DNA from: an uncultured Pseudomonadota bacterium
Lineage (GTDB): Bacteria; Oederibacteriota; Muellerivitia; Muellerivitales; Muellerivitaceae
Reading direction: 5' to 3'
DNA: 64,000 nt
NCBI GenBank assembly: GCA_963770835.1
Contig: CAVYRH010000004.1
Span: forward strand, 715,339-779,338
Shown piece by piece: positions 51,688 to 64,000 of the stretch. Position 1 is the stretch's first letter. Every line of letters starts with the position of its first letter. The notes beneath the pieces are model-generated. The model made no database searches. It worked only from the letters and a program-made list of their open reading frames with translations, and was not told where the DNA came from. A program made the position numbers and the translations under genes.

Positions 51688-52278
51688 ATGGGCCGCCCAA
51701 CATTAGCCAACCGAAAAGACACCCCCGCTGAACTGAAAAAAGTGGCCCTGGAATTGATCCAGACCAGGGGTTACAACGCCTTCAGTTACCAGGACCTGGC
51801 GGAGAGGCTGAAGATCCGCAAGGCCAGCATCCACTACCACTTTCCCGCCAAGGAAGACCTGGGGGTGGGCCTGCTCACGGACAGTTTGAAGCGCGTCAGC
51901 GGCTGGCAGGATTCCATCAATGAAAGGGGCTTGACCCCCTTGGAGCGGATACAGGCTTATTTCGATTACTTCAAAAGCATCTCGGAGAACTGCACGCGCA
52001 TCTGTCCCATTGGGGCTTTGATTTCCGAATGGTCCACTTTGCCGAAAAAGGTCCGGGCCACGGCCGGCGCCGTCATCAAGCGCCACCAGGATTGGCTGAG
52101 GGGGGTCCTGGAACAAGGCCGTAAGGAAGGCGTCTTCGCCGCCCGGGGGCCCGTGGGGGAACAGGCCCAGTTTATTTACGCCTCCATCCAGGGGGCCTTG
52201 CAGACCAGCCGGGCCCAGAACAACCCGGACTATTACCCCCAGGTCACCCGGCAGATATTGGAAGCTTTAAAGAAGTAA
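51688..52278 (+). CDS. TetR-family regulator (NemR-like)
   Basis: GYNAFSYQDLA..L.IRKASIHYHFPAKEDL, C-terminal ICPIG. Confidence 0.9.
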   Translation: MGRPTLANRKDTPAELKKVALELIQTRGYNAFSYQDLAERLKIRKASIHYHFPAKEDLGVGLLTDSLKRVSGWQDSINERGLTPLERIQAYFDYFKSISENCTRICPIGALISEWSTLPKKVRATAGAVIKRHQDWLRGVLEQGRKEGVFAARGPVGEQAQFIYASIQGALQTSRAQNNPDYYPQVTRQILEALKK

Positions 52279-52314
52279 GTTGGGTTTTTGAGTATCTGAT
52301 TTGATTTTCTTAAA

Positions 52315-52403
52315 CCCTCGCCCCTTGGGGGAGAGGGTAGGGTGAGGGGTGTTGTAGCCGTCAAAACCACCCTCATCCCGGCCTCTCCCCTCAAGGGAGA
52401 AGG
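52315..52403. repeat. REP-like inverted pair of the CCCTCTCCC/GGGAGAGGG family
   Basis: ccctcgccccttgggggagagggtagggtgagggg ... ccctcatcccggcctctcccctcaagggagaagg. Confidence 0.7.
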
Positions 52404-52471
52404 TGGAAACAGAAGGTTGGTTTTCGGGAAGCGGAAGCCAAGTGCTCCGTTCCCAATTTTTTTACCCTCAA

Positions 52472-52491
52472 TACCTACCTATAGATAGGTA
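52472..52491. promoter_or_regulatory. Third TetR-type operator, upstream of the efflux operon
   Basis: TACCTACC-tata-GATAGGTA, same consensus as 51630 and 51651. Confidence 0.72.
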
Positions 52492-52561
52492 TTGAGGGAC
52501 GGGGCCCGGCGCACAGGGAAGAACAAAAACTTAATTTTTAGCGGATTACCAGGAGGAAGCC

Positions 52562-52726
52562 ATGAACAGCGAGTACCGCATCCAATCCCTCATCGAACTG
52601 GAAAGGCCGGCCGGCCACCCGGTTCCGGAGGAGATCAAAAGGCTGGCCCATCTCAACGACAACATGGTCCGGCGGGTGGCCTTGGCCCGGGAGCGGACCG
52701 AACGGCAATCGCAGCGCAAAGCTTGA
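52562..52726 (+). CDS. Small hypothetical protein heading the efflux operon (absent from the ORF track)
   Basis: RBS AGGAGG; MNSEYRIQSLIELERPAGHPVPEEIKRLAHLNDNMVRRVALARERTERQSQRKA*. Confidence 0.55.
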   Translation: MNSEYRIQSLIELERPAGHPVPEEIKRLAHLNDNMVRRVALARERTERQSQRKA

Positions 52727-52778
52727 GGCAGGAAAAAAACCAACCCCGGCGGAAGGCCGGGAAAAAAAGGAGAGCGTC

Positions 52779-53636
52779 ATGACGACAAAAACGAAAAAAC
52801 AGGCGGGATTTGGAATAGGGGCGGCGGCGGTGGCCCTCGTGGCGGCCTGGCTGGCCTTCGGGGGGCGTTCCGAATCCACCGATAACGCCTATGTGGAGGC
52901 CAATGTGGCCACGCTTTCCACCAAGGTCCCGGGTTTGGTTTCCCAGGTGCTGGTGGAGGAGAACCAAAAGGTCAAGAAGGGCCAGATCCTGGTGGTCATT
53001 GATCCCCGGGACTACCAGAACGCCCTGGACGAGCAGGAAGCCCAGCTTCGCTCCATCGAGGCCAGCCTGAAGCTGGCCAAAAAGGACGAAATAAGGGCGG
53101 TGGACCTTTTCGCCGAACAGGCCGTCAGCGCCCAGTACCGGGACGCGGCCCTGGCCAAGGCGCAGGAACTGGAGAACCAATGGAGCTCGCTGCGGGCCCA
53201 GATCCAGCAAAGCGAGCTGAACCTGCAGTTCACCATGCTGCGCGCGCCGGAGGACGGCACCATCGGCAAGAAGTCGGTGGAAGCGGGCATGGTGGTGGCC
53301 CCGGGCGAGCCCCTGCTCTCTTTCGTGGACGCGGCCACGCCCTGGGTGGACGCCAATTTCAAGGAAACCCAATTGCGCAAGATCAGGCCCGGCCAAAGGG
53401 CCAGGGTGGAGATCGACTCCATCGGGGGCAGGCAATTCGAGGCCGTCGTGGACAGCATCGCCCCCGGCACGGGCTCCACCTTCGCGCTCATCCCGCCGGA
53501 GAACGCCACGGGCAACTTCACCAAGATCGTCCAGCGGGTGCCGGTGCGGCTGCGCTTTTTGGTGGATTCCATCAAGGGCTACGAGGACCGCATCGTGCCG
53601 GGCCTGTCGGCCGAAGCCAAGATCATCGTGGACTGA
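52779..53636 (+). CDS. EmrA/HlyD-family membrane fusion protein
   Basis: STDNAYV, WVDANFKETQL, FALIPPENATGNFTKIVQRVPVR. Confidence 0.92.
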   Translation: MTTKTKKQAGFGIGAAAVALVAAWLAFGGRSESTDNAYVEANVATLSTKVPGLVSQVLVEENQKVKKGQILVVIDPRDYQNALDEQEAQLRSIEASLKLAKKDEIRAVDLFAEQAVSAQYRDAALAKAQELENQWSSLRAQIQQSELNLQFTMLRAPEDGTIGKKSVEAGMVVAPGEPLLSFVDAATPWVDANFKETQLRKIRPGQRARVEIDSIGGRQFEAVVDSIAPGTGSTFALIPPENATGNFTKIVQRVPVRLRFLVDSIKGYEDRIVPGLSAEAKIIVD

Positions 53637-53646
53637 GGAGGCCCCC

Positions 53647-55203
53647 ATGACACCCCCCACCCCCGAAAAGGCGACAACCAAACAATGGATCGCGGTGATC
53701 GGCTCCCTCCTGGGGGCTTTCATGGCCATCCTGGACATCTCCATCACCAACTCTTCCTTGCGTGATATCCAGGGCGGCCTGGATGCCACCCTGGACGAAG
53801 GGGCTTGGATCTCCACCGCTTACCTGGTGGCCGAGATCATCGTCATCCCCCTCACCGGCTGGCTGGCCCAGGTCTTCGGCTTGCGCCGCTACCTGCTTTG
53901 GAGCGCGGGGGCCTTCATCGCGGCCTCCATGCTGTGCGGTACGGCCCAAAGCCTGCCCGCCATGATCTTTTTCCGTATCCTCCAGGGTTTCTCGGGGGGC
54001 GTGCTCATCCCCTTGAGCGCCACCATCATCCTCACCAACCTGCCCACTGCCCAAAGGGCCTTGGGGCTGTCGCTCTTCAGCCTGTCGGCCACCTTCGCCC
54101 CCTGCATCGGGCCCACCATCGGCGGCTGGCTGACGGTCAACTATTCCTGGCCCTTCATTTTCTACATCAACCTGGTGCCGGGCATCCTCTTGCTGCTTTT
54201 GGCGGGTTACGGGCTTGAGAAGGCCCCCACCCAATTGGGCTTGCTGAGGCAAGGGGACTGGTGGGGCATCCTTACCATGGGGACGGCCCTGGGGTCCCTG
54301 ACGGTGGTGCTGGAGGAAGGCGTCCGCGAGGATTGGTTCGGGTCGGACCTCATCCTTTACCTGACTATCCTGATGGTCGCCTCCGCCATCCTATTCCTTA
54401 TCGTGGAGGCCCATAACCCGAAGCCCTTCATCAATATCCGGCTTCTCTTGCGGCGCAACTTCCTGATGGCCAACCTGGCGGCCCTGGCCTTCGGGTTCGG
54501 CATCTACGGCTCCATCTTCATCCTGCCCCTGTTCCTGGCGCAGATCCGGCAGTTCGACGCCACGCAGATCGGGCAGGTCATCATGTGGTCGGGCTTTCCC
54601 CAACTTCTCATCATCCCCATCCTCCCGGCGATGGTGAAAAGGTTCGACAACCGGGTCCTGGCGGCCGTCGGGTTCCTGCTCTTCGGGACCAGCGCCTTGA
54701 TGAACGCCGGATTGACCAACGATTGGGGCTATGACCAGTTCCTCTGGTCGCAGGTGGTTCGGGCCCTGGGCCAGCCCTTCATCATCACCTGCATGTCGAA
54801 CCTGGCCTACCGGGGGCTGGAACCCTCGGAAGTGGGTTCCGCCTCGGGGCTTTTCAACATGATGCGCAACCTGGGCGGCTCCATCGGCATCGGGGCGCTG
54901 GGGGCCCTCCTGGACAACCGCTACCACCTGCATTTCACCCGTATCGCCGAGGCCACCAGCCGATTCTCGCCGGCGGCCCAGGTGGAGTTGGCCCACCGGG
55001 CCGGTTACCTGGCCTTGCATTCGGGCGGGGAGGGCCTGCGCCAGGCCCTGGCCACGGTCTTCGGTACCCTGAACCGGGAAGCCTTCGTGATGGCCTACAG
55101 CGATTGCTTTTTGGCCATCGGCCTGATGTTCTATGCCAGCGCGGTGCTGATGGGGTTCATCCGAAAGGCGGCGGCGCCCCCGGGCGCGGTGGCGGGGCAC
55201 TGA
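53647..55203 (+). CDS. EmrB/QacA DHA2 MFS efflux permease
   Basis: GAFMAILDISI, WISTAYLVAE, RILQG, GPTIGG, RNLGGSIG. Confidence 0.92.
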   Translation: MTPPTPEKATTKQWIAVIGSLLGAFMAILDISITNSSLRDIQGGLDATLDEGAWISTAYLVAEIIVIPLTGWLAQVFGLRRYLLWSAGAFIAASMLCGTAQSLPAMIFFRILQGFSGGVLIPLSATIILTNLPTAQRALGLSLFSLSATFAPCIGPTIGGWLTVNYSWPFIFYINLVPGILLLLLAGYGLEKAPTQLGLLRQGDWWGILTMGTALGSLTVVLEEGVREDWFGSDLILYLTILMVASAILFLIVEAHNPKPFINIRLLLRRNFLMANLAALAFGFGIYGSIFILPLFLAQIRQFDATQIGQVIMWSGFPQLLIIPILPAMVKRFDNRVLAAVGFLLFGTSALMNAGLTNDWGYDQFLWSQVVRALGQPFIITCMSNLAYRGLEPSEVGSASGLFNMMRNLGGSIGIGALGALLDNRYHLHFTRIAEATSRFSPAAQVELAHRAGYLALHSGGEGLRQALATVFGTLNREAFVMAYSDCFLAIGLMFYASAVLMGFIRKAAAPPGAVAGH

Positions 55204-55261
55204 CCCAATTCTTAATTTTGAATTCTTAGTTATGAATTAAAGTAAAAAAAGGAGGCAGGTC

Positions 55262-55999
55262 ATGGAAAAGGATCGATTCGCGGGGAAGGTTATTTTAGTC
55301 ACGGGAGGGAACAGCGGCATCGGGCTGGCGACGGCGCAAAGGCTGGCCGAGGAAGGGGCCCAGGTCATCATCACGGGCCGGGATAAGGAAAAATTGGAAA
55401 AGGCGGTTCGGGAGCTGGGATCCCAGGCCCAGGGCATCGTGGCCGATGTGGCCAGGGTTTCGGACCTCGATTCCCTTTACGCCCAGGTCAAGGCCAAGTA
55501 CGGGCGGCTGGATGGACTCTTCGCCAACGCGGGGGTGGCCATCATGGAACCCCTGGAACAGGTCACCGAAGAGCATATCAACACCATGATGGACACCAAC
55601 TTTAGGGGCACCTTCTTTACGGTTCAAAAAGCCATCCCCCTCTTTTCCAAGGGGGCCGCGGTGGTGTTGAACGCCTCCGTCGCGGATACGAAGGGCACGG
55701 CCGCCATGGCGGGTTATGCCGCCACCAAGGCGGCGGTCCGCTCGATGGCCCGTACCTTTTCGAGCCATTTACTGTCCCAGCAAGTCAGGGTGAACGTGGT
55801 CAGCCCAGGCCCCATTGAAACCCCCATTTGGGCCGGGGTGCCCGCCGCCGGTTTGGAAGCCCGGGCCGCGCTGGTGCCCGCCAAGCGTTTCGGCACCGCC
55901 GAGGAAGTGGCGGGGGCCGTGGCTTACCTCCTTTCCGACGAGTCGGCTTATACCGTCGGCGCGGAGCTTTTCGTGGACGGGGGCGTTGGCCAGCTCTGA
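55262..55999 (+). CDS. Short-chain dehydrogenase/reductase
   Basis: TGGNSGIG, ANAG, YAATK, NVVSPGPIET. Confidence 0.92.
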   Translation: MEKDRFAGKVILVTGGNSGIGLATAQRLAEEGAQVIITGRDKEKLEKAVRELGSQAQGIVADVARVSDLDSLYAQVKAKYGRLDGLFANAGVAIMEPLEQVTEEHINTMMDTNFRGTFFTVQKAIPLFSKGAAVVLNASVADTKGTAAMAGYAATKAAVRSMARTFSSHLLSQQVRVNVVSPGPIETPIWAGVPAAGLEARAALVPAKRFGTAEEVAGAVAYLLSDESAYTVGAELFVDGGVGQL

Positions 56000-56126
56000 A
56001 GTTACCATTGGAAATATCTAGCGGGCTTGAAATGGGAAATCCGGACAACCTAAGCGGCTTGGAGTTGAAGAAAACTGGGGTTTTGTGTTACCCTTATGAC
56101 ATATACGTATTACTTTTGGAGGACCC

Positions 56127-56354
56127 GTGAGGACGATTACAGTCAAAATACCGGAATCTTTAGAACGAGAATTGGAAAACTTGGCCCGTAAACGCCATGT
56201 CAGCCGTTCGGCCGTTTTAAGGGAAGCGCTGAACGGTCTTGCTGGGCAGCGTAAACGCTCCGCCGCGGATTTGGCCGGAGAATTAGTAGGAAAGCTGCGA
56301 GGCGCTTCCGGTTTATCCACCGCATCCAAACACATGCGGGGATACGGTGAATGA
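56127..56354 (+). CDS. CopG/RHH antitoxin
   Basis: TITVKIP...SRSAVLREAL...LST...HM.GYG; overlaps the PIN gene. Confidence 0.82.
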   Translation: MRTITVKIPESLERELENLARKRHVSRSAVLREALNGLAGQRKRSAADLAGELVGKLRGASGLSTASKHMRGYGE

Positions 56355-56767
56355 AGCAGAATTACATCGCTGATACCGGCCCTATCGTTGCGCTTCTCAA
56401 CAGCCGCGACCAATACCACCTTTGGGCCCGCGATCTTTTTGAATCGATCGAACCGCCCCTTGCTACCTGCGAGGCTGTCATTTCGGAAGCCTGCTTTTTG
56501 GTGCGCGGCCTCAAAGGAGGGGCCCGTGCAGTATTTGGACTCCTTGATCGCGGTGTGCTTGACCTATCCTTTCGGTTGGGACCCCACTTAACCGCTGTCG
56601 ATGCCTTGATGTCCCGGTATTCCAGTGTTCCCATGTCGCTGGCAGACGCATGCCTAGTGAAAATGTCTGAACTAGATCCCAAAGCAATCGTTTTGACCCT
56701 CGATAGTGATTTTAAAATTTATCGGCGGAATGGCCGACAAGTCCTGCCGGTCGCCATGCCTGATTGA
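56351..56767 (+). CDS. VapC-type PIN toxin
   Basis: ADTGPIVA, EAVISEA, MSLADACLV, TLDSDF.IYR. Confidence 0.87.
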   Translation: MKQNYIADTGPIVALLNSRDQYHLWARDLFESIEPPLATCEAVISEACFLVRGLKGGARAVFGLLDRGVLDLSFRLGPHLTAVDALMSRYSSVPMSLADACLVKMSELDPKAIVLTLDSDFKIYRRNGRQVLPVAMPD

Positions 56768-56786
56768 TGTGGTTGCACTTTCATGT

Positions 56787-56814
56787 TGTCCACGAAGGGG
56801 ACCCTTCGTGGACA
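56787..56814. repeat. 28-bp hairpin repeat R1
   Basis: TGTCCACGAAGGG-GA-CCCTTCGTGGACA, perfect 13-bp arms. Confidence 0.92.
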
Positions 56815-56942
56815 GGCAAAAAGACTTAAAGACCTCTTTTGGGCGGGAAGGTTGAAGAGGTTTTTGACCCCTTGCGGGAATTGCACAATGGTGATATCAT
56901 GATATCGTAATTACGCTTAAGCCTACATTGTGGAGGTAACCT

Positions 56943-57194
56943 ATGGCCCAATTAATCGTTCGGAATTTAGATGACAGCGTGAAGTTGAAACTGAGCCAAA
57001 GGGCTCGGAAGAATGGGCACAGCACGGAAGAAGAGGTGCGAGACATCTTGAGAAATGTGGTAGGGAAGGATGGGGGCCGCGCTCCCATACCATTGGGCGC
57101 CAGGTTTAAGGCGCGGTTTAGGAAGATAGGGTTGACCAGAGAAATCCCCGAATTGCGTGGCCAGCAAGCCCAGCCTGTCTCCCTTGTCCCATGA
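56943..57194 (+). CDS. FitA-like RHH antitoxin
   Basis: MAQLIVRNLDD..K.KL..RA..NG.S.EEEVRDIL. Confidence 0.87.
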   Translation: MAQLIVRNLDDSVKLKLSQRARKNGHSTEEEVRDILRNVVGKDGGRAPIPLGARFKARFRKIGLTREIPELRGQQAQPVSLVP

Positions 57195-57610
57195 TCCTGC
57201 TCGATACAAATATTCTTTCCGCATTGATGCTTCGGGAACCGGATACTGCTGTCGTTTCATGGTTGGATCGCCAGTCCGTTGAATCGGTTTGGACCACGAC
57301 GATCACCGTATTTGAGATTCGGTTTGGCCTCGAGAACCTGGCGGGTGGGAAAAGACGGCATCAACTGGAAGACATTTTTAACCAAGCCTTGGAAATTGAT
57401 TTGGAAGGCCGGGTCCTACCATTTGACCTGGCTGCGGCCCGGGCGTCTGCCTCGATCGCGGCCCAACAAAGAAAAATAGGGCGTCCGGTTGAGATTCGAG
57501 ATGTCCAGATTGCCGGGATCGCTTTGGCCAACAAGGCAACCTTGGCCACCCGCAATATTCGGCATTTTCAAGGGCTTGGAATCCATCTGATTGATCCATG
57601 GAAAACCTAA
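57191..57610 (+). CDS. FitB/VapC PIN toxin
   Basis: MILLDTNILS, EIRFG, DVQIAGIA, LATRN.RHF, IDPW. Confidence 0.9.
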   Translation: MILLDTNILSALMLREPDTAVVSWLDRQSVESVWTTTITVFEIRFGLENLAGGKRRHQLEDIFNQALEIDLEGRVLPFDLAAARASASIAAQQRKIGRPVEIRDVQIAGIALANKATLATRNIRHFQGLGIHLIDPWKT

Positions 57611-57612
57611 CC

Positions 57613-57640
57613 TGTCCACGACGGGGACCCGGAATGGACA
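57613..57640. repeat. 28-bp hairpin repeat R2
   Basis: TGTCCACGACGGGGACCCGGAATGGACA, 2 nt after the toxin stop. Confidence 0.92.
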
Positions 57641-57682
57641 AGAAGAAAAGTATTTAAAGACCGTTTATTATCGGGAGGCGGG

Positions 57683-58777
57683 ATGAATCGAAATAATTCT
57701 AAAAGCCGGGGTTATGATTTGTTCATCGTTAGTCTCTTCTTCTTCTGTTTCGTATCCTTTTTGTCCCATTTTTTCCTTTTGGGTTTTCTCTTAATAGCAA
57801 TTGGTTTGTTTTTTATTTGGTCGCAAGAAAGGGGGTTCCGAGGGAAAGGGGCTGCCAGGAATGTCCAATATGCAGGCTTTTGGAGGCGATTAGGTAGTTT
57901 GACTGTGGATGGTGGGGTCTTTAGCTCCTTCTTCCTATTTTTATTGTTACTCCTGAGAAAAAATATTTATGACTATTGGATCAATGCTTTTTATTGCCTC
58001 ATTTGCTTGGGGGTTACCCTCTACACTCTCAAGCGATGGAGTCAAACGCCGGGTAAAATGGTGATGGGTATTCATGTCCTTAAAAACGATTTTTCCTCGA
58101 TCACTTTGAAACAAATTTTATTTAGACAAAGTCTGGATGTTTTTTTTAACTTCTGGTGTTTAGTAAAGGCCCTTTTGATCACGGGCGGTATAACAACGGC
58201 AGGTATGTTACTCGTTGGTTCTCAAGATCCATTCAGTTTTCCTTCCAATATTTTAAAAATCATCGAAGACAAATTACCTTATTTTTTTATTATTTGGTAT
58301 TTCAGCGAAATGGTCATACTTTTGATTAACCATAAAAAAAGAGCCCTCCATGATTATTTAGCCGACACGATAGTAGTTGTTAAAAAGAAAAGCGTTCCCC
58401 GGTGGACCTGGTGGGTTGTAGCGGCTTCCATCCTCATCATTTTCAGTGATTTTTATATAAGTTGGATCCACGGCGATTTAGCGGCGGAAACTTTGGCAGC
58501 CAAGGGAGACCCAACTTATGAAGAGATTCTTGGGAATGATTATTTTAGAGGTCGGCGGGGATTTCATAAAGACTACACACTGGCTTTTCAATGGTTCGAG
58601 AAAGCTGCGGTTCAGCAAAATGCAATTGCTCAATATTACTTGGGAGAAATGTACGAAAAAGGTTTGGGAGTGCATCCTGATAAAAATCAAGCCCTTCAAT
58701 GGTATTCCCGCGCTGCGATAAACGGTGATTTGGCGGCCCCGTTAGCCGTGAAAAGGTTGGGGAGGGAAAACAAATAA
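57683..58777 (+). CDS. RDD-domain membrane protein with C-terminal Sel1-like repeats, AT-rich
   Basis: YAGFWRRL, QTPGKMVMGI, KRALHDYLADT; A..WFEKAA.Q....AQYYLGEMY..G.GV. Confidence 0.85.
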   Translation: MNRNNSKSRGYDLFIVSLFFFCFVSFLSHFFLLGFLLIAIGLFFIWSQERGFRGKGAARNVQYAGFWRRLGSLTVDGGVFSSFFLFLLLLLRKNIYDYWINAFYCLICLGVTLYTLKRWSQTPGKMVMGIHVLKNDFSSITLKQILFRQSLDVFFNFWCLVKALLITGGITTAGMLLVGSQDPFSFPSNILKIIEDKLPYFFIIWYFSEMVILLINHKKRALHDYLADTIVVVKKKSVPRWTWWVVAASILIIFSDFYISWIHGDLAAETLAAKGDPTYEEILGNDYFRGRRGFHKDYTLAFQWFEKAAVQQNAIAQYYLGEMYEKGLGVHPDKNQALQWYSRAAINGDLAAPLAVKRLGRENK

Positions 58778-58791
58778 AGTCCAAGTCTACT

Positions 58792-58819
58792 TGTCCACGA
58801 CGGGGACCCTTCGTGGACA
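58792..58819. repeat. 28-bp hairpin repeat R3
   Basis: TGTCCACGACGGGGACCCTTCGTGGACA. Confidence 0.92.
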
Positions 58820-58887
58820 AGGGTGATTGGGCACGTTGACTAGAATGAAAGGGGTGAAAATTGCATGAAATATTTTAGAGGTGAAGC

Positions 58888-59070
58888 GTGAATCTTTTCC
58901 AAAGTCAATGTTCAAAATGTGGGGCTCAGTATTACTTAAACGCTTCCATTTGCCCGAACTGTGGAGACAGGAAGTTTAGCCTATTGACTAATGAGATTTA
59001 TGCGGTTGTATGGTTTGTTGTGGGTGGCATCTGTTGTTTGATTGTGTTGATAAAGCATTTTTTTAAATGA
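58888..59070 (+). CDS. Small zinc-ribbon membrane protein
   Basis: RBS GAGGTG; CSKCG...CPNCG plus C-terminal TM helix. Confidence 0.65.
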   Translation: MNLFQSQCSKCGAQYYLNASICPNCGDRKFSLLTNEIYAVVWFVVGGICCLIVLIKHFFK

Positions 59071-59112
59071 GTCAATCGAAGAAGATCGTTCGGTTAAATG
59101 CGGTTTTCCCAT

Positions 59113-59140
59113 TGTCCACGACGGGGACCCGGATTGGACG
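59113..59140. repeat. 28-bp hairpin repeat R4
   Basis: TGTCCACGACGGGGACCCGGATTGGACG. Confidence 0.9.
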
Positions 59141-59167
59141 ATCTTTTTCGGCAGTTTTGAATGAACC

Positions 59168-59201
59168 TTGACTATCTCCCCAAAAGTCCTACAATGTAGG
59201 A
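59168..59201 (+). promoter_or_regulatory. Promoter and palindromic operator of the HigBA-type module
   Basis: TTGACT-16 nt-TACAAT overlapped by TCCTACA-A-TGTAGGA. Confidence 0.65.
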
Positions 59202-59202
59202 T

Positions 59203-59568
59203 ATGTCAAAAGGATGGGTGATGGAACGACACCATTTTATTCAGTCGCCTATCTATTCGAGACTGATCGACGCAATTCGCGAGGAGGGTTTGCAAGTCGC
59301 GATTGAAGAAGCCATCAATAACAACCCCGTTGGCGGGAAACTTTTAGGGGGCGGCATTCATAAGTTACGAATCGCCTCAACCAAGAGGCCCGAAGGGAAA
59401 AGCGGTGGTTACCGGGTTTGGTACTTTTTCGATGAGCCCGATGACATTTACCTTTTTTTCATCATTGATAAGCGAAAGGCTCCGGATTTAACGGTTGAGC
59501 AGGAAAAGATCCTAGTCCAGGACTTGCGGCAGGCTTTAAGCAAAGGGAAAACAGGAGGGAAGAAATGA
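59203..59568 (+). CDS. RelE/HigB-family toxin
   Basis: GGIHKLRIA...GKSGGYRVWYF; start may be 59221. Confidence 0.85.
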   Translation: MSKGWVMERHHFIQSPIYSRLIDAIREEGLQVAIEEAINNNPVGGKLLGGGIHKLRIASTKRPEGKSGGYRVWYFFDEPDDIYLFFIIDKRKAPDLTVEQEKILVQDLRQALSKGKTGGKK

Positions 59569-59864
59569 ACGATAAAGATTTCAAACTGATGCGGGAGAGT
59601 CTCAAGCAATCGATCGAGATCAAAAAAGGCAAGAAACTCCACGGCATGCGGGAAAGCTACCGGCCAAAACCAGCGACCGCTGATGAAGTAAAAGGTGTTC
59701 GTAAAGCTTTGCATTTAACCCAGGCAGGGTTTGCGGGGGTTGTGGGTGCAAGCCCTAATGCCATTGAACACTGGGAACAGGGCATTCGACGACCGAGTGG
59801 TTCCGCGTCAAAGCTGATCCGCATTCTTAAGTCCCATCCAGAACTGATCTCGGAAATACGCTAA
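59565..59864 (+). CDS. HigA-type XRE antitoxin
   Basis: LTQAGFA...IEHWEQG.RRPSGSA.KL. Confidence 0.87.
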   Translation: MNDKDFKLMRESLKQSIEIKKGKKLHGMRESYRPKPATADEVKGVRKALHLTQAGFAGVVGASPNAIEHWEQGIRRPSGSASKLIRILKSHPELISEIR

Positions 59865-59868
59865 GACC

Positions 59869-59896
59869 TGTCCACGACGGGGACCCGTAGTAGACA
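59869..59896. repeat. 28-bp hairpin repeat R5, abutting the 5' end of intron 1
   Basis: TGTCCACGACGGGGACCCGTAGTAGACA. Confidence 0.9.
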
Positions 59897-59897
59897 T

Positions 59898-60696
59898 CGT
59901 GCCAGAGGAGGGTTTGCAGAGCCAGCAGGTGAGGGAGTAGGCCGATGAGGGTCAACCCAAGTCCTGACCAGGTAATCACCAGAGAGCCTGGAAGTCAGCC
60001 CCCGGCGTAGGATCGAGAGGTCCTGCCCGAAACGGGGTCATAAACCTCATTTAGTGAGGGAACAATCCAGCAGTCCGCAACATCAAGTGAATCCTGCCGC
60101 TTCGTGAATGGGACACCGAAAGGTGCAAGGGGATGCCGAGCCGCGTGTCTACTGGCGAAGGCCACGATCCCGCTGAAGAATCTGGTAGCAAGCGGGGCAA
60201 GTCCTCCGGAGTATGGGGAACGGAATGTTGGAAAGGCTATGCAAGCAAGCTGGGAGATCCTACCCGCCAAAAGACTTGCCGCTATAAGGCTAAAACCGAA
60301 AAGAGGCAAGGGTGGGAGGAAGTCGGAGGGGGTCACAGTACCGATGAAGGGGTGGACAACAAAACCACCCTGAGGGAAGGACCCCTGCTTCAACCATGTG
60401 TCTCAAAGAAGGTAGGCGCTGGAGCATGCCCCAAAAGGGCCAACAACTCTGTAGTACCAAAGCGCGAGGCCTTTGACAACAGGCACTATGCCGAGCGGCC
60501 AAGGGGGAAGTCGAACCTGTAAAGCCGCCGGAGGAGAGGTTGTCGGAAAGCCGTATGATCGAAAAGGTCACGTACGGTTTGACGAGGGGGCGCTGGAAAC
60601 GAAGTGATGAGGGAACCTCGTTGGGGCACGGAACCGGAAACGGGGAAACAGATCAAGGAACCCTCTGCACACCATCGCGCCAGTGCTCTACTCTGC
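59898..60696 (+). ncRNA. ORF-less group II intron (intron 1); 5' boundary uncertain by 1-2 nt
   Basis: (C)GTGCC start; EBS1 hairpin GCC-GCGTGTCTACT-GGC; domain V AAAGCCGTATGATCGAAAAGGTCACGTACGGTTT (~60547-60580); domain VI GGCGCTGGAAACG...CGCGCCAGTGCTCT-A-CTCTGC; no RT ORF. Confidence 0.85.
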
Positions 60697-60756
60697 AGAC
60701 GAAAGGGTCAGGGTGGTCTGGCATCTTTTTTCATGGCGGAACGAGGGGGTGTTTTG

Positions 60757-62034
60757 ATGACTTTTCATTTGAGATCGCTATTTCTTTATTTTGGTTGGAC
60801 CTACTTATTAACGACGTTAAGTTTTGCCCAGGCCCTTGATCCTACCTTGGATAAACTTGGTTTCCATTACATTCCGGCTCTGAAAGTGACCGAAGTGTTG
60901 CCGAATGCCAAGGAGGTGACGGTGCGAGTGGGGAAGGAAAGTTACATTATTCGACAGTCGAAACCGTTCTTTCTTGAGGATGACTGTCTGGTCAAGAACT
61001 TGGAAAACCCGAAACCGGAGGGGGACAACGATTGGTGCTACCAGTCGGCCTATGTCCATTTCTCAAGGCCCAGACGTTACGCCTTTTGGATGGAGTCCAC
61101 GACCAATTGCCGGCTCACATCGGGGAGTTCGTCGGCGTCCTTTTTTGACGGTGACAAGGAGGTTTGGAACGAATCAGGCGGGCCGGACCCGATCATTTTT
61201 TTGAAAATGATCGAACCTTCGGGCACCGTAGCCTATTGCATCGGTCGCAACGGGACCCTTCAAAGCCTCGTCCTTCGCGATGCCACGGGAAAGACCTATT
61301 TTGAGGCGGACGGCGTTATGAACAAAATGCTTTCCGAGAATGGGAAATACCTGGCTTATATGACCGAGAGGCGCGGCCCCGTGACCATCCATCTGGTTTC
61401 CACCGATGATCCGAAGGACCATAAGACTTTCCCGGCCCCCGCGGAATTCGATTGGATCAGCGGGGATGGGAGGCGCCTTTTGACAGGCTCCAGTAATTAC
61501 AAGCTTAAAAATGACCAATGGTGGGGTATCAGCAATGAAGGCAAGATCCTGTTCACCTATGAAGCCGCCAATGTGCCGGACCAAGGCTGGTTGAGTATCG
61601 AAGGGTCTCCTGGCCAAACCGGGGTTGGGACTAAGCCCTTCTTTATAGGTGCCGTGAAGAATGATTCCATCCTCCTTTTTTACGACAAGGCTCGGGGGAA
61701 GGTGGTTTATTTAGGCGCGGAGGATGGAAAGACGATCTTGGAGGTCCCTATTCCAAAAGATATGGACCCCCTTTGGGTCGTTGAGGGGCGGGCTTATGAG
61801 GATGGCGACATGATCGCTTTGGGCAGCTTCCTGAAATCGCCGAACAAGGAAAAAACGATCGCGGGAAGATCGGCTGTCCTATTGAACTTAAAAAGCGAGA
61901 AACTTTGGGAACTTCAGGAGACGGTCGAGAAACCGGTGACCGGCCAGGAGTCCGATCGGCTTTTGGATGAATTCGATGGAAAGGTCGTGTTCCATTTCCA
62001 TACGGAACGCCGTTTTTCTTATGTTGTTAAGTGA
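60757..62034 (+). CDS. Hypothetical secreted protein (beta-propeller-like)
   Basis: RBS GAGGGGG at 60743, signal peptide ending SFA-Q; SENGKYLAY and SGDGRRLL repeats; the ORF-track start at 60604 lies inside intron 1. Confidence 0.7.
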   Translation: MTFHLRSLFLYFGWTYLLTTLSFAQALDPTLDKLGFHYIPALKVTEVLPNAKEVTVRVGKESYIIRQSKPFFLEDDCLVKNLENPKPEGDNDWCYQSAYVHFSRPRRYAFWMESTTNCRLTSGSSSASFFDGDKEVWNESGGPDPIIFLKMIEPSGTVAYCIGRNGTLQSLVLRDATGKTYFEADGVMNKMLSENGKYLAYMTERRGPVTIHLVSTDDPKDHKTFPAPAEFDWISGDGRRLLTGSSNYKLKNDQWWGISNEGKILFTYEAANVPDQGWLSIEGSPGQTGVGTKPFFIGAVKNDSILLFYDKARGKVVYLGAEDGKTILEVPIPKDMDPLWVVEGRAYEDGDMIALGSFLKSPNKEKTIAGRSAVLLNLKSEKLWELQETVEKPVTGQESDRLLDEFDGKVVFHFHTERRFSYVVK

Positions 62035-62044
62035 TGTTTGAAGT

Positions 62045-62055
62045 TGTCCACGACG
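62045..62055. repeat. Left part of hairpin repeat R6, split by intron 2
   Basis: TGTCCACGACG | intron | GGGA (63997-64000) rejoins to the consensus TGTCCACGACGGGGA. Confidence 0.9.
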
Positions 62056-63996
62056 GTGCGTCCAGAAAAGGCAGGTGTGTTCAGCAAGAGATAGTCTTGC
62101 ATGGGTAATAGCCAAAGCCCATTAGCTAGGATGGCAGGCAAGCGGGAAACCAAATGCCTGAAGCCCATCAACAAAGCCATCGAAAGGATGGTGAGCGAGT
62201 CGTCGGGCCGTAACGAAAGTAAATGCACAGGTGGCCCCGAAAACACTTGCCTCGGAGGCTGAGTCCGCCGTCGTGGGACGAAAGCATCATGGGACAGCGC
62301 GGAGAAATGGCTGAAGCGCTGGAACACTCCGACGGGGTGATAGCAACGGCACGAAGACAAGGACACGCCAAGCAACTGGAGAAACCCTCCTTGCCCCAGG
62401 CAGAAATGCTTGGAGAAAGGTAGGCCGTATAACCGTGACGCGGGAAAACGGTCGAAGGTGAGAGGGTTTAGGATGGGTTCATGGTAGCGATGAAGCGGGG
62501 TAATGCCCGTGGAGCGAAGGAACCCTGCTGTTGTTAAGTCCCTCGACAAAACGGAAGGCAGTGACGGTATGAAAAAGACGTCAATTAACCTGCAAGACCT
62601 GAGACGAGAGATATACGTCAAAGCGAAGGCTGAAAAGAACTGGAGTTTCTGGGGACTGTACACCCATGTTTGCAAGATGGAAACGCTTCAACAGGCTTAC
62701 CGAATGGCTAAGGTAAATAACGGAGCCCCTGGAATAGATGGGGTGACGTTTGATGCCATTGAGGAGGCCGGAGTGGAGTCGTTTCTGGAAAGCATCCGGG
62801 GTGAATTAGTTCAAGGCACGTATAAGCCCGTTCGAAACCGGAAGAAGGAAATACCCAAGGGAAATGGGAAGGTAAGAGTCCTTGGGATACCCAACATTCG
62901 GGATAGAGTAGTCCAGGGAGCACTGAAGTTTATTCTGGAACCGATTTTTGAGGCCGATTTTCAAGAAGGGTCCTATGGGTATCGACCCAAGCGGACCGCT
63001 CATGCGGCTGTGAACAGGGTAGCATCGGCAATCGTCTGTAGAAAAACCCGAGTCATTGATGTAGACCTCAAGGCATATTTCGACACGGTAAGGCACGACC
63101 TTCTGATGAAGAAAGTTGCCCGAAGGGTTGAGGATGAAACGGTGTTGAGATTGTTGAGGATGATCCTGAAGGCCAGCGGCAAAAGAGGAGTCCCGCAGGG
63201 AGGGGTTATTTCCCCTCTTCTGGCTAATCTCTACCTCAACGAGGTGGATAAGATGCTGGAAAAGGCAAAAGAAGTGACTCGGCAAGGGAAGAACAACTAT
63301 ATCGAATATGCGAGGTTCGCTGACGATATGGTGATCCTTGTTAATGGATATCCGCAATGGGAATGGTTGGCAAAGGCTGCCTACCGAAGGTTACTTGAAG
63401 AATTGACCAAGCTCGACTTGCAAATCAACACGGACAAGACGCGGATAGCAGACTTAACGAAAGGTGAAAGTTTCGGGTTTCTGGGGTTTGACTTTCGACA
63501 GGTGAAAACCCGTCGAGGGAAATGGGGGGTGAAGTTCACGCCGAAAATGAAGGCGCGAGCAACACTTCTGGGTAAGCTCAAGGAAACATTTGGAAGCTTC
63601 CAATCTCAGCCGGTGCAGAGGGTGATTGAGATTATCAATCCCAAACTGCGTGGGTGGGTGAATTACTTTCGGATAGGGAATTCTAGGCGCTGTTTTAACT
63701 ACGTGGAAAGATGGGTCGAGAATAAAATCAGACGGCATATGATGCGTGCGAAGAAGCTCGACGGTTTTGGGCGGGATAGGTGGAGTAGGGAGTGGATATA
63801 TAAGTATCTGGGGTTGTACAGAAGCTACCAAATACGATATTACCAAGAACCGAAAGCGCTACCCGTCTGATAGGTCACATAAACTTTGACAGGAAAGCAA
63901 CAGGTGAGCGTAGTGCGGGAAATCCGCACGCTACGTTCGAGGAGGCGGGGACTGGAAACGGAGCCAGAAGGCCACCGCACCAGTCCTCGACCCTAC
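62056..63996 (+). mobile_element. Complete RT-encoding group II intron (intron 2)
   Basis: 5' GTGCG; EBS1 hairpin GTCC-GCCGTCGTG-GGAC; domain V TGAGCGTAGTGCGGGAAATCCGCACGCTACGTTCG (~63905-63939); domain VI with bulged A, ends CCCTAC. Confidence 0.95.
62569..63870 (+). CDS. ltrA: Group II intron reverse transcriptase/maturase, no endonuclease domain
   Basis: GAPGIDG, LGIP..RDRVVQ, SYGYRP, GVPQGGVISPLLANLYL, RFADD, FLGF, X domain LRGWVNYF; ends without HNH. Confidence 0.95.
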   Translation: MKKTSINLQDLRREIYVKAKAEKNWSFWGLYTHVCKMETLQQAYRMAKVNNGAPGIDGVTFDAIEEAGVESFLESIRGELVQGTYKPVRNRKKEIPKGNGKVRVLGIPNIRDRVVQGALKFILEPIFEADFQEGSYGYRPKRTAHAAVNRVASAIVCRKTRVIDVDLKAYFDTVRHDLLMKKVARRVEDETVLRLLRMILKASGKRGVPQGGVISPLLANLYLNEVDKMLEKAKEVTRQGKNNYIEYARFADDMVILVNGYPQWEWLAKAAYRRLLEELTKLDLQINTDKTRIADLTKGESFGFLGFDFRQVKTRRGKWGVKFTPKMKARATLLGKLKETFGSFQSQPVQRVIEIINPKLRGWVNYFRIGNSRRCFNYVERWVENKIRRHMMRAKKLDGFGRDRWSREWIYKYLGLYRSYQIRYYQEPKALPV

Positions 63997-64000
63997 GGGA

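Follow-up and report, generated by a model that had tools for sequence, protein, structure and literature searches.

The window analysed here is a stretch of 64,000 nt from an uncultured soil bacterium with a genome of 4.58 Mb (G000); it closes contig C4, which ends at position 64000. From position 56127 onwards it carries gene modules separated by copies of a 28-bp repeat, which almost certainly joins the gene cassettes of a system found throughout the lineage. The likely cassette enzyme is a short serine recombinase whose gene lies on another contig and which is predicted to cut at the centre of the repeat. As a whole, the system may well be an independently evolved second integron-type capture system, in which a minimal, non-directional serine recombinase, derived from tRNA-targeting large serine integrases, would shuffle double-stranded cassettes among about 100 chromosomal 28-bp sites throughout the order, would ride a conjugative element forming a cassette in its own right, and would have site-specific introns and IS110 elements of its own.

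An earlier note on this DNA had described six copies of the repeat, and all six are real: five are intact (sites 1–5 at 56787..56814, 57613..57640, 58792..58819, 59113..59140 and 59869..59896), showing 0–1 mismatch to the pattern given in the note (0 matches expected from 100 shuffles), and the sixth is split after 11 nt (62045..62055) by a group II intron, to resume as GGGA at 63997–64000. Their single shared orientation (plus strand) and their position 2–42 nt after a stop codon likewise hold for every copy (19, 2, 14, 42, 4 and 10 nt for sites 1–6). The cargo, also on the plus strand, consists of (i) an RHH antitoxin (56127–56354) and a PIN toxin (56351–56767) with Pfam matches RHH_1 and PIN (cassette 1, 56127..56767), (ii) a FitA-like RHH protein with a PIN toxin (cassette 2, 56943..57610), (iii) an RDD plus Sel1 membrane protein with a G+C fraction (GC) of 0.40 (cassette 3, 57683..58777), (iv) a 60-aa zinc-ribbon membrane protein (cassette 4, 58888..59070), (v) a RelE-type toxin with an MqsA/HigA-type antitoxin (cassette 5, 59203..59864), and (vi) a 425-aa protein with a signal-peptide-like start (cassette 6, 60757..62034). 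Pfam agrees with the identities proposed for the first five modules, while the sixth, taken for a propeller protein, has no match to any Pfam family. The varied base composition of the cargo is confirmed, with a GC of 0.39–0.52 for the window cassettes versus 0.59 upstream. Site 2 at 57613 is spanned by contigs of three public runs with 0 differences, and this junction is thus no assembly artefact. Upstream of cassette 1, a profile scan revealed no recognisable site.

Across the genome, 86 sites were found by a mismatch scan and 96, with intact left arm and central GA, by a profile scan, the latter distributed over 30 loci. Sites are clustered (82 of 96 lie within 5 kb of another) and the segments between them have a median length of 975 nt and a median GC of 0.475, compared to 0.545 for the genome. 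The upstream gene ends on the same strand at 72 sites and on the opposite strand at 5; mixed orientation occurs in none of the 30 loci, and the majority gene strand is followed at 25 of 26 testable loci. A survey of 71 open reading frames (ORFs) preceding sites, taken from 20 regions and hence from part of all sites, yielded no Pfam match (threshold 1e-6) for 45 of them. The matched ORFs include GNATs, PIN toxins, an antitoxin, Sel1/TPR proteins and hydrolases; a few look housekeeping-like (NAD kinase, a response regulator, a weak MTHFR) and none is ribosomal or replicative. Mostly accessory genes precede the sites, rather than the core genes that the earlier note would have expected ahead of a plain REP or terminator. 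The repeat pattern is present in 31 of 32 genomes of the FCPU426 order, whereas 15 genomes from elsewhere in the phylum were searched and none has it. When every species genome was scanned, at least 147 loci emerged; the 80 matches listed belong to candidate division FCPU426, to metagenome-assembled genomes and, in one case, to a genome labelled Firestonebacteria. Several arrays of G000 (C16:20088, C11:103318 and C5:305929) begin with a site whose left arm is good but whose right arm is degenerate, and housekeeping-type genes precede two of these; such array starts may represent landing sites.

The cassettes between the sites are found beside different neighbours in different genomes. Three window cassettes (1, 2 and 5) recur in other genera: cassette 2 has homologues of 83–90 % identity with other neighbours in four genomes (G043, G044, G024 and G014), cassette 5 has homologues of 81–91 % in six other genomes in addition to a second copy on contig C26 of the same genome, and cassette 1 has homologues of 78–80 % in four other genomes. 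For cassettes 3 and 4, no homologue was found in other genomes. The homologues inspected cease to be similar at the site or next to it and have other neighbours; in three of them, other sequence displaces the downstream site. Identical cassettes also have different neighbours within this genome. Cargo order, for which the earlier note had considered fixation among relatives, therefore differs between genomes, and its proposal of a gene-cassette platform served by an enzyme in trans is supported.

The site consensus is TGTCCACGACGGG GA CCCGTCGTGGACA, i.e., perfect 13-bp inverted arms around a central GA; in a collection of contexts that did not require the GA, 301 of 306 have it. Comparison of sites sharing one flank revealed the origin of the two arms. 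Among 439 contexts, 27 pairs with a common upstream flank showed 10 differences in the left arm versus 69 in the right arm, and 29 pairs with a common downstream flank (intron and IS110 flanks left out) showed 27 versus 15; random site pairs differ on average at 1.0 left-arm and 3.6 right-arm positions. Position 11 goes with the upstream cassette and position 16, which differs in 57 of 439 contexts, with the downstream cassette, placing the exchange within positions 12–15. One low-depth contig of run X7 is identical to cassette 2 for 221 nt; the match breaks off behind the GA, where the contig passes into the beginning of a cassette that follows a site in G004. Each cassette hence begins with the right arm of one site and ends with the left arm of its successor, the arms travel with it, and exchange falls between positions 12 and 15. 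Such an exchange around a central dinucleotide is serine-recombinase geometry. Conservation peaks at 1–3 and 8–13 bp from the centre and is lowest at 4–7 bp in the right arm. In the solved structure of the LI integrase, 13 bp are covered by the recombinase domain, which touches the major groove at 9–11, and positions 16–24 are bound by the zinc domain (PMC3783163). The agreement between this profile and the LI contacts fits protein contacts on duplex DNA, and a double-stranded 13-2-13 dyad describes the site better than a hairpin does.

The sole Resolvase-domain match of the genome is a 275-aa gene product encoded on contig C17 (C17:12078–12905), 14 nt from a site. The protein contains only the Resolvase and Recombinase domains (PF00239, PF07508) with an invariant YxRVSS motif, and the top Foldseek matches of its predicted model (pLDDT 65) are serine integrases. 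It stops before the zinc ribbon, which starts near residue 290 in its 467–476-aa relatives. The 19 closest proteins (275–283 aa, 68–100 % identity) form one clade (support 100/99) against 20 chosen relatives and possess neither a zinc ribbon nor a coiled coil domain; long integrases share at most 59 % identity, and the nearest relatives among them are integrases of 467–530 aa (45–59 % identity). In pairs with estimable dS, dN/dS is 0.02–0.08 for the catalytic and 0.09–0.29 for the DNA-binding part, and the clade is by these pairs under purifying selection. The short clade was not found in 67 genomes of the phylum outside the order.

The candidate gene is closely associated with the repeat. Of the clade loci of the order, 11 retain the 3' end of the gene, and all 11 have a convergent site 8–36 nt past it (one intron-split site read by eye; three loci lacking the 3' end set aside), compared to 0 of 6 loci of full-length relatives within the order. 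In a metagenomic comparison comprising 80 loci, both clade members have a variant arm after the gene, one of them with a complete variant 13-GA-13 site 9 nt past the stop codon, and only a weak match follows 1 of 68 long relatives. A variant site with other arm cores, unchanged ends and central GA occurs at L300:1205–1245; the G004 recombinase is closest to L300 in its DNA-binding domain and has the same arm type beside its gene, possibly reflecting co-variation of enzyme and site. Many copies of the gene truncated at the 5' end, with the 3' end and adjacent site kept, are present in G043 (C6, C8 and C28), G021 (C2), G004 (C1, L218) and G020 (C9, L289). The recombinase gene adjoins ArdC in G000, G043 and G020, in G000 and G020 also RadC; in G043 it borders about 37 kb with a VirB4/TraG-type ATPase before the next site, and in G004 it adjoins core genes.

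With this recombinase as cassette enzyme, a dimer would bind the two 13-bp arms via its recombinase domain. Exchange within positions 12–15 and conservation of the GA suggest that both strands would be cut around the GA with a 2-nt stagger; the halves would be swapped by subunit rotation. The asymmetric GA would fix orientation, such that direct repeats would excise circles able to re-enter any other site. Lacking zinc ribbon and coiled coil, the enzyme would make no attP/attB distinction and would use one site type in both directions; absence of the coiled coil, which imposes directionality, would render excision and integration reversible. In accordance with the latter, deletion of the coiled coil abolishes directionality of an integrase (PMC5499577). 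The recombinase gene often lies at the edge of a site-bordered mobile element (ArdC, RadC, once a VirB4-like ATPase). By carrying the enzyme, and perhaps cassettes too, from cell to cell, this element may account for arrays that lack the enzyme.

Several observations weigh against this reading. Several flank-sharing pairs break the arm rule (e.g., C17:5060/L401, L294/L141 and L413/L414), and such pairs are not independent of each other. The left arm is better conserved than the right, which a homodimer does not explain; part of this excess arises from searches anchored on the left arm. Neither circular cassettes nor cassette-skipping joints were detected in contigs of 8 runs, which cannot show absence. 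A coiled-coil-less integrase performs intermolecular integration poorly (PMC5499577), and no control mechanism was found against the large deletions that about 100 equivalent sites should risk. An intact recombinase is encoded in 5 of 32 order genomes (median 64 sites) and fragments in 2; with this query it was not found in 25 of 32 (median 7 sites), seven of which have 23–47 sites. In these counts, kin are not independent and assemblies are incomplete. Finally, adjacency of gene and site also fits an element that is no more than a parasite of the site, like the two introns and an IS110 element.

The last point leads to the alternative that the short serine recombinase is merely the integrase of an element that adopted the site, with another, unrecognised enzyme moving the cassettes. 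Its patchy distribution (intact in 5 of 32), the neighbouring ArdC, RadC and conjugation-like genes in G000, G043 and G020, the divergent site arm beside the gene and the attraction of other parasites to the site would agree with such a role. However, ordinary cassettes exchange at the identical central position, an enzyme recombining its own element's site should also act on the identical cassette sites, and no other shared recombinase was found. Moreover, integrase-less arrays are common among integrons, too (PMC4889954). The alternative is thus considered unlikely.

A tyrosine recombinase such as the single Xer, reading the site as 11-6-11 in the manner of dif, is even more doubtful. The site can be drawn in this way, which would make the cassettes similar to dif modules, and a search of 25 order genomes retrieved a Xer orthologue from 24, a range nearer to that of the repeat than the serine enzyme's. 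However, Xer has its own AT-rich, dif-like palindrome, which is unlike the repeat and lies directly upstream of the gene at the terminus in 22 of 22 aligned loci, and the repeat was rejected as its dif. Furthermore, positions 16–17 would belong to the 6-bp overlap, and yet they vary and go with the downstream cassette. The single xer gene (G000 C11:156000–157117; L001, L149–L171) is located at the replication terminus and occurs order-wide; a XerC/XerD pair was not found. Altogether, the genome encodes 12 tyrosine recombinases, comprising tRNA-linked island integrases, a RIT trio and the one Xer-like gene at a strand-bias switch. The integrases of about 365 aa were rejected as cassette enzyme due to their association with tRNA genes, and a custom hidden Markov model retrieved no hidden divergent member beyond the 12 known. 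The tyrosine recombinase considered in the earlier note thus loses ground, the sole shared one having a different site.

The second enzyme class and the site form favoured there, a folded single-strand hairpin cut by an HUH/Y1 enzyme (or, in the present analysis, by an IntI-like integrase), fare no better. Perfect copies do fold strongly (z -3.5 to -7), and orientation along the majority gene strand (25 of 26 loci) could result from single-strand mechanisms. However, for 3 of the 5 intact copies in the window folding is no stronger than in shuffled sequences, compensatory changes (36) hardly exceed the 31.9 expected after arm shuffling (reached in 222 of 1000 shuffles), and G-T pairs show no strand bias (175 vs 195). 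Perfect palindromes account for 67 of 438 contexts, and 161 of 438 have at least 3 unpaired arm positions; in addition, the two arms originate in different cassettes. Y1 was not found in G021, G020, G001, G006 and G025, genomes without a Y1 match having up to 108 sites, and IntI (TIGR02249) gave 12 weak matches, the best with 44.6 bits versus a cut-off of 265. A hairpin mechanism is therefore highly improbable. Y1/RAYT was also rejected as a candidate in its own right, since the two RAYT-like genes have no sites and a search of 24 family relatives retrieved no Y1 gene from 6, among them the site-rich G021 and G020.

Equally implausible is a REP-like (repetitive extragenic palindromic) element or terminator shuffled via homologous recombination or insertion sequence (IS) activity: a palindrome behind stop codons at 30 dispersed loci, with a few degenerate copies behind housekeeping-type genes (e.g., NAD kinase), would suit it, but the sites are clustered without any mixed-orientation locus, a T-run follows in just 24 of 437 contexts (excluding a Rho-independent terminator), 45 of 71 preceding ORFs have no Pfam match and none is ribosomal or replicative, and between-genome homology ends at the site.

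In viral contigs, 2 sequences match the left part of the site but lack its right arm, and they were treated as chance. A search for oriC motifs in G004 found nothing.

The system works like an integron but belongs, by the tests run, to neither integrons, CRISPR arrays, dif modules nor REP elements. Common to integrons and attC clusters without an integron-integrase (CALINs) are one-gene or toxin-antitoxin cassettes in one orientation, a site built from parts of neighbouring cassettes, and the existence of integrase-less clusters (PMC4889954). In contrast, the present site is a 28-bp sequence-conserved dyad with central exchange and no covariation, attC boxes and IntI are lacking, the arrays are dispersed (about 30), the candidate gene converges on the array end, and many cassettes have their own upstream space. 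Integron attC sites are reportedly targeted by dedicated group II introns (IIC-attC introns), paralleling the site-targeting introns here. No box pair RYYYAAC...GTTRRRY 30–130 nt apart was found on either strand of 56000–64000. The genome likewise contains no short-spacer CRISPR array, the median segment of 975 nt differing from spacers of 25–60 nt. The earlier note is thus supported in regarding the repeat as neither attC nor CRISPR.

Large serine integrases (LI/A118, Bxb1, phiC31) share catalytic and recombinase domains and a central dinucleotide with the present system (PMC3783163, PMC5499577). Here, however, the protein naturally ends before zinc ribbon and coiled coil, and one 28-bp site type in many copies replaces the attP/attB pair. 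Acinetobacter dif modules (pdif, XerC/D) resemble the cassettes in comprising accessory or toxin-antitoxin modules, short repeated sites and an enzyme in trans (PMC13141974). They differ in that the site here is unlike the host's own dif, arrays are chromosomal and all-direct, and the enzyme would be of a different class. As a further likeness, pdif sites are said to be targeted by IS elements. The Mpi recombinase of Bacteroides fragilis, a single serine recombinase, reportedly serves many dispersed sites in trans, similar to the proposal made here; it is said to invert promoters between inverted repeats, whereas here direct repeats bound gene cassettes. No description of the present system was found in the literature searched, subscription papers being mostly outside the reach of the search.

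In bacteria, cassette capture has been described chiefly for systems that use tyrosine recombinases (integrons, dif modules). An equivalent built on a serine recombinase, if true, would be a convergent strategy using other chemistry, with a likeness extending to toxin-antitoxin cargo and site-specific parasites. A large survey of large serine recombinases (LSRs) kept proteins of 400–650 aa only in its high-quality set (PMC10083194), and the present system would escape such length-filtered surveys as well as attC-based searches. If the assignment holds, a 275-aa recombinase with a single 28-bp site could possibly be useful in engineering as a compact, Cre-like serine tool. Comparison of cassette ends across the order may show how new cassettes form, a question still open for integrons.

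Two group II introns and an IS110-type element exploit the site. The intron splitting site 6 (62056..63996, plus strand) encodes a reverse transcriptase (ORF 62503–63870; TIGR04416 above cut-off, intron supported by Rfam) and has an EBS1-like (exon-binding site 1) match near 62269; 10 of its 12 genomic copies are located inside a site at the position of the window copy. A second, ORF-less intron on the plus strand (about 59896..60696; Rfam RF02003, RF00029), overlooked in the earlier note, is positioned at the last base of site 5, with its boundary inferred. All 17 genomic 5' ends of this family lie after a GACA site end, with about three extra 5' bases ahead of the GUGCC start, and copies are often interrupted by another element at one internal position. 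In run X5, a related group II intron, polymorphic there, has its 3' end ahead of the cassette that follows site 3. The IS110-type element (DEDD motif; family assigned by inspection) is represented in G000 at C3:45328, 81921 and 103117, C8:165072 and C26:219211, with 4 of 5 copies at a site edge in either orientation.

Among the travelling cassettes of the system is a module of cas1 and divergent cas2, behind which a 37-bp repeat is located, in G000 (C3:47167–102030, C15:11460–17231 and C16:21529–37480; L184–L187), G004 (C1, L190) and G014 (C5, L202). Cas1 exceeds the cut-off in 9 of 31 genomes, the site-rich G021 and G020 not among them, and is cargo where present; this distribution and the separate 37-bp repeat rule out Cas1-Cas2 as cassette integrase. 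The latter repeat occurs in 27 copies in G000, separated by segments of 0.2–12 kb that cut through genes and include a piece of cas1. Ahead of the window array (51688–55999), ordinary genes of TetR, HlyD, MFS (EmrB-like) and SDR type, named by inspection, are encoded.

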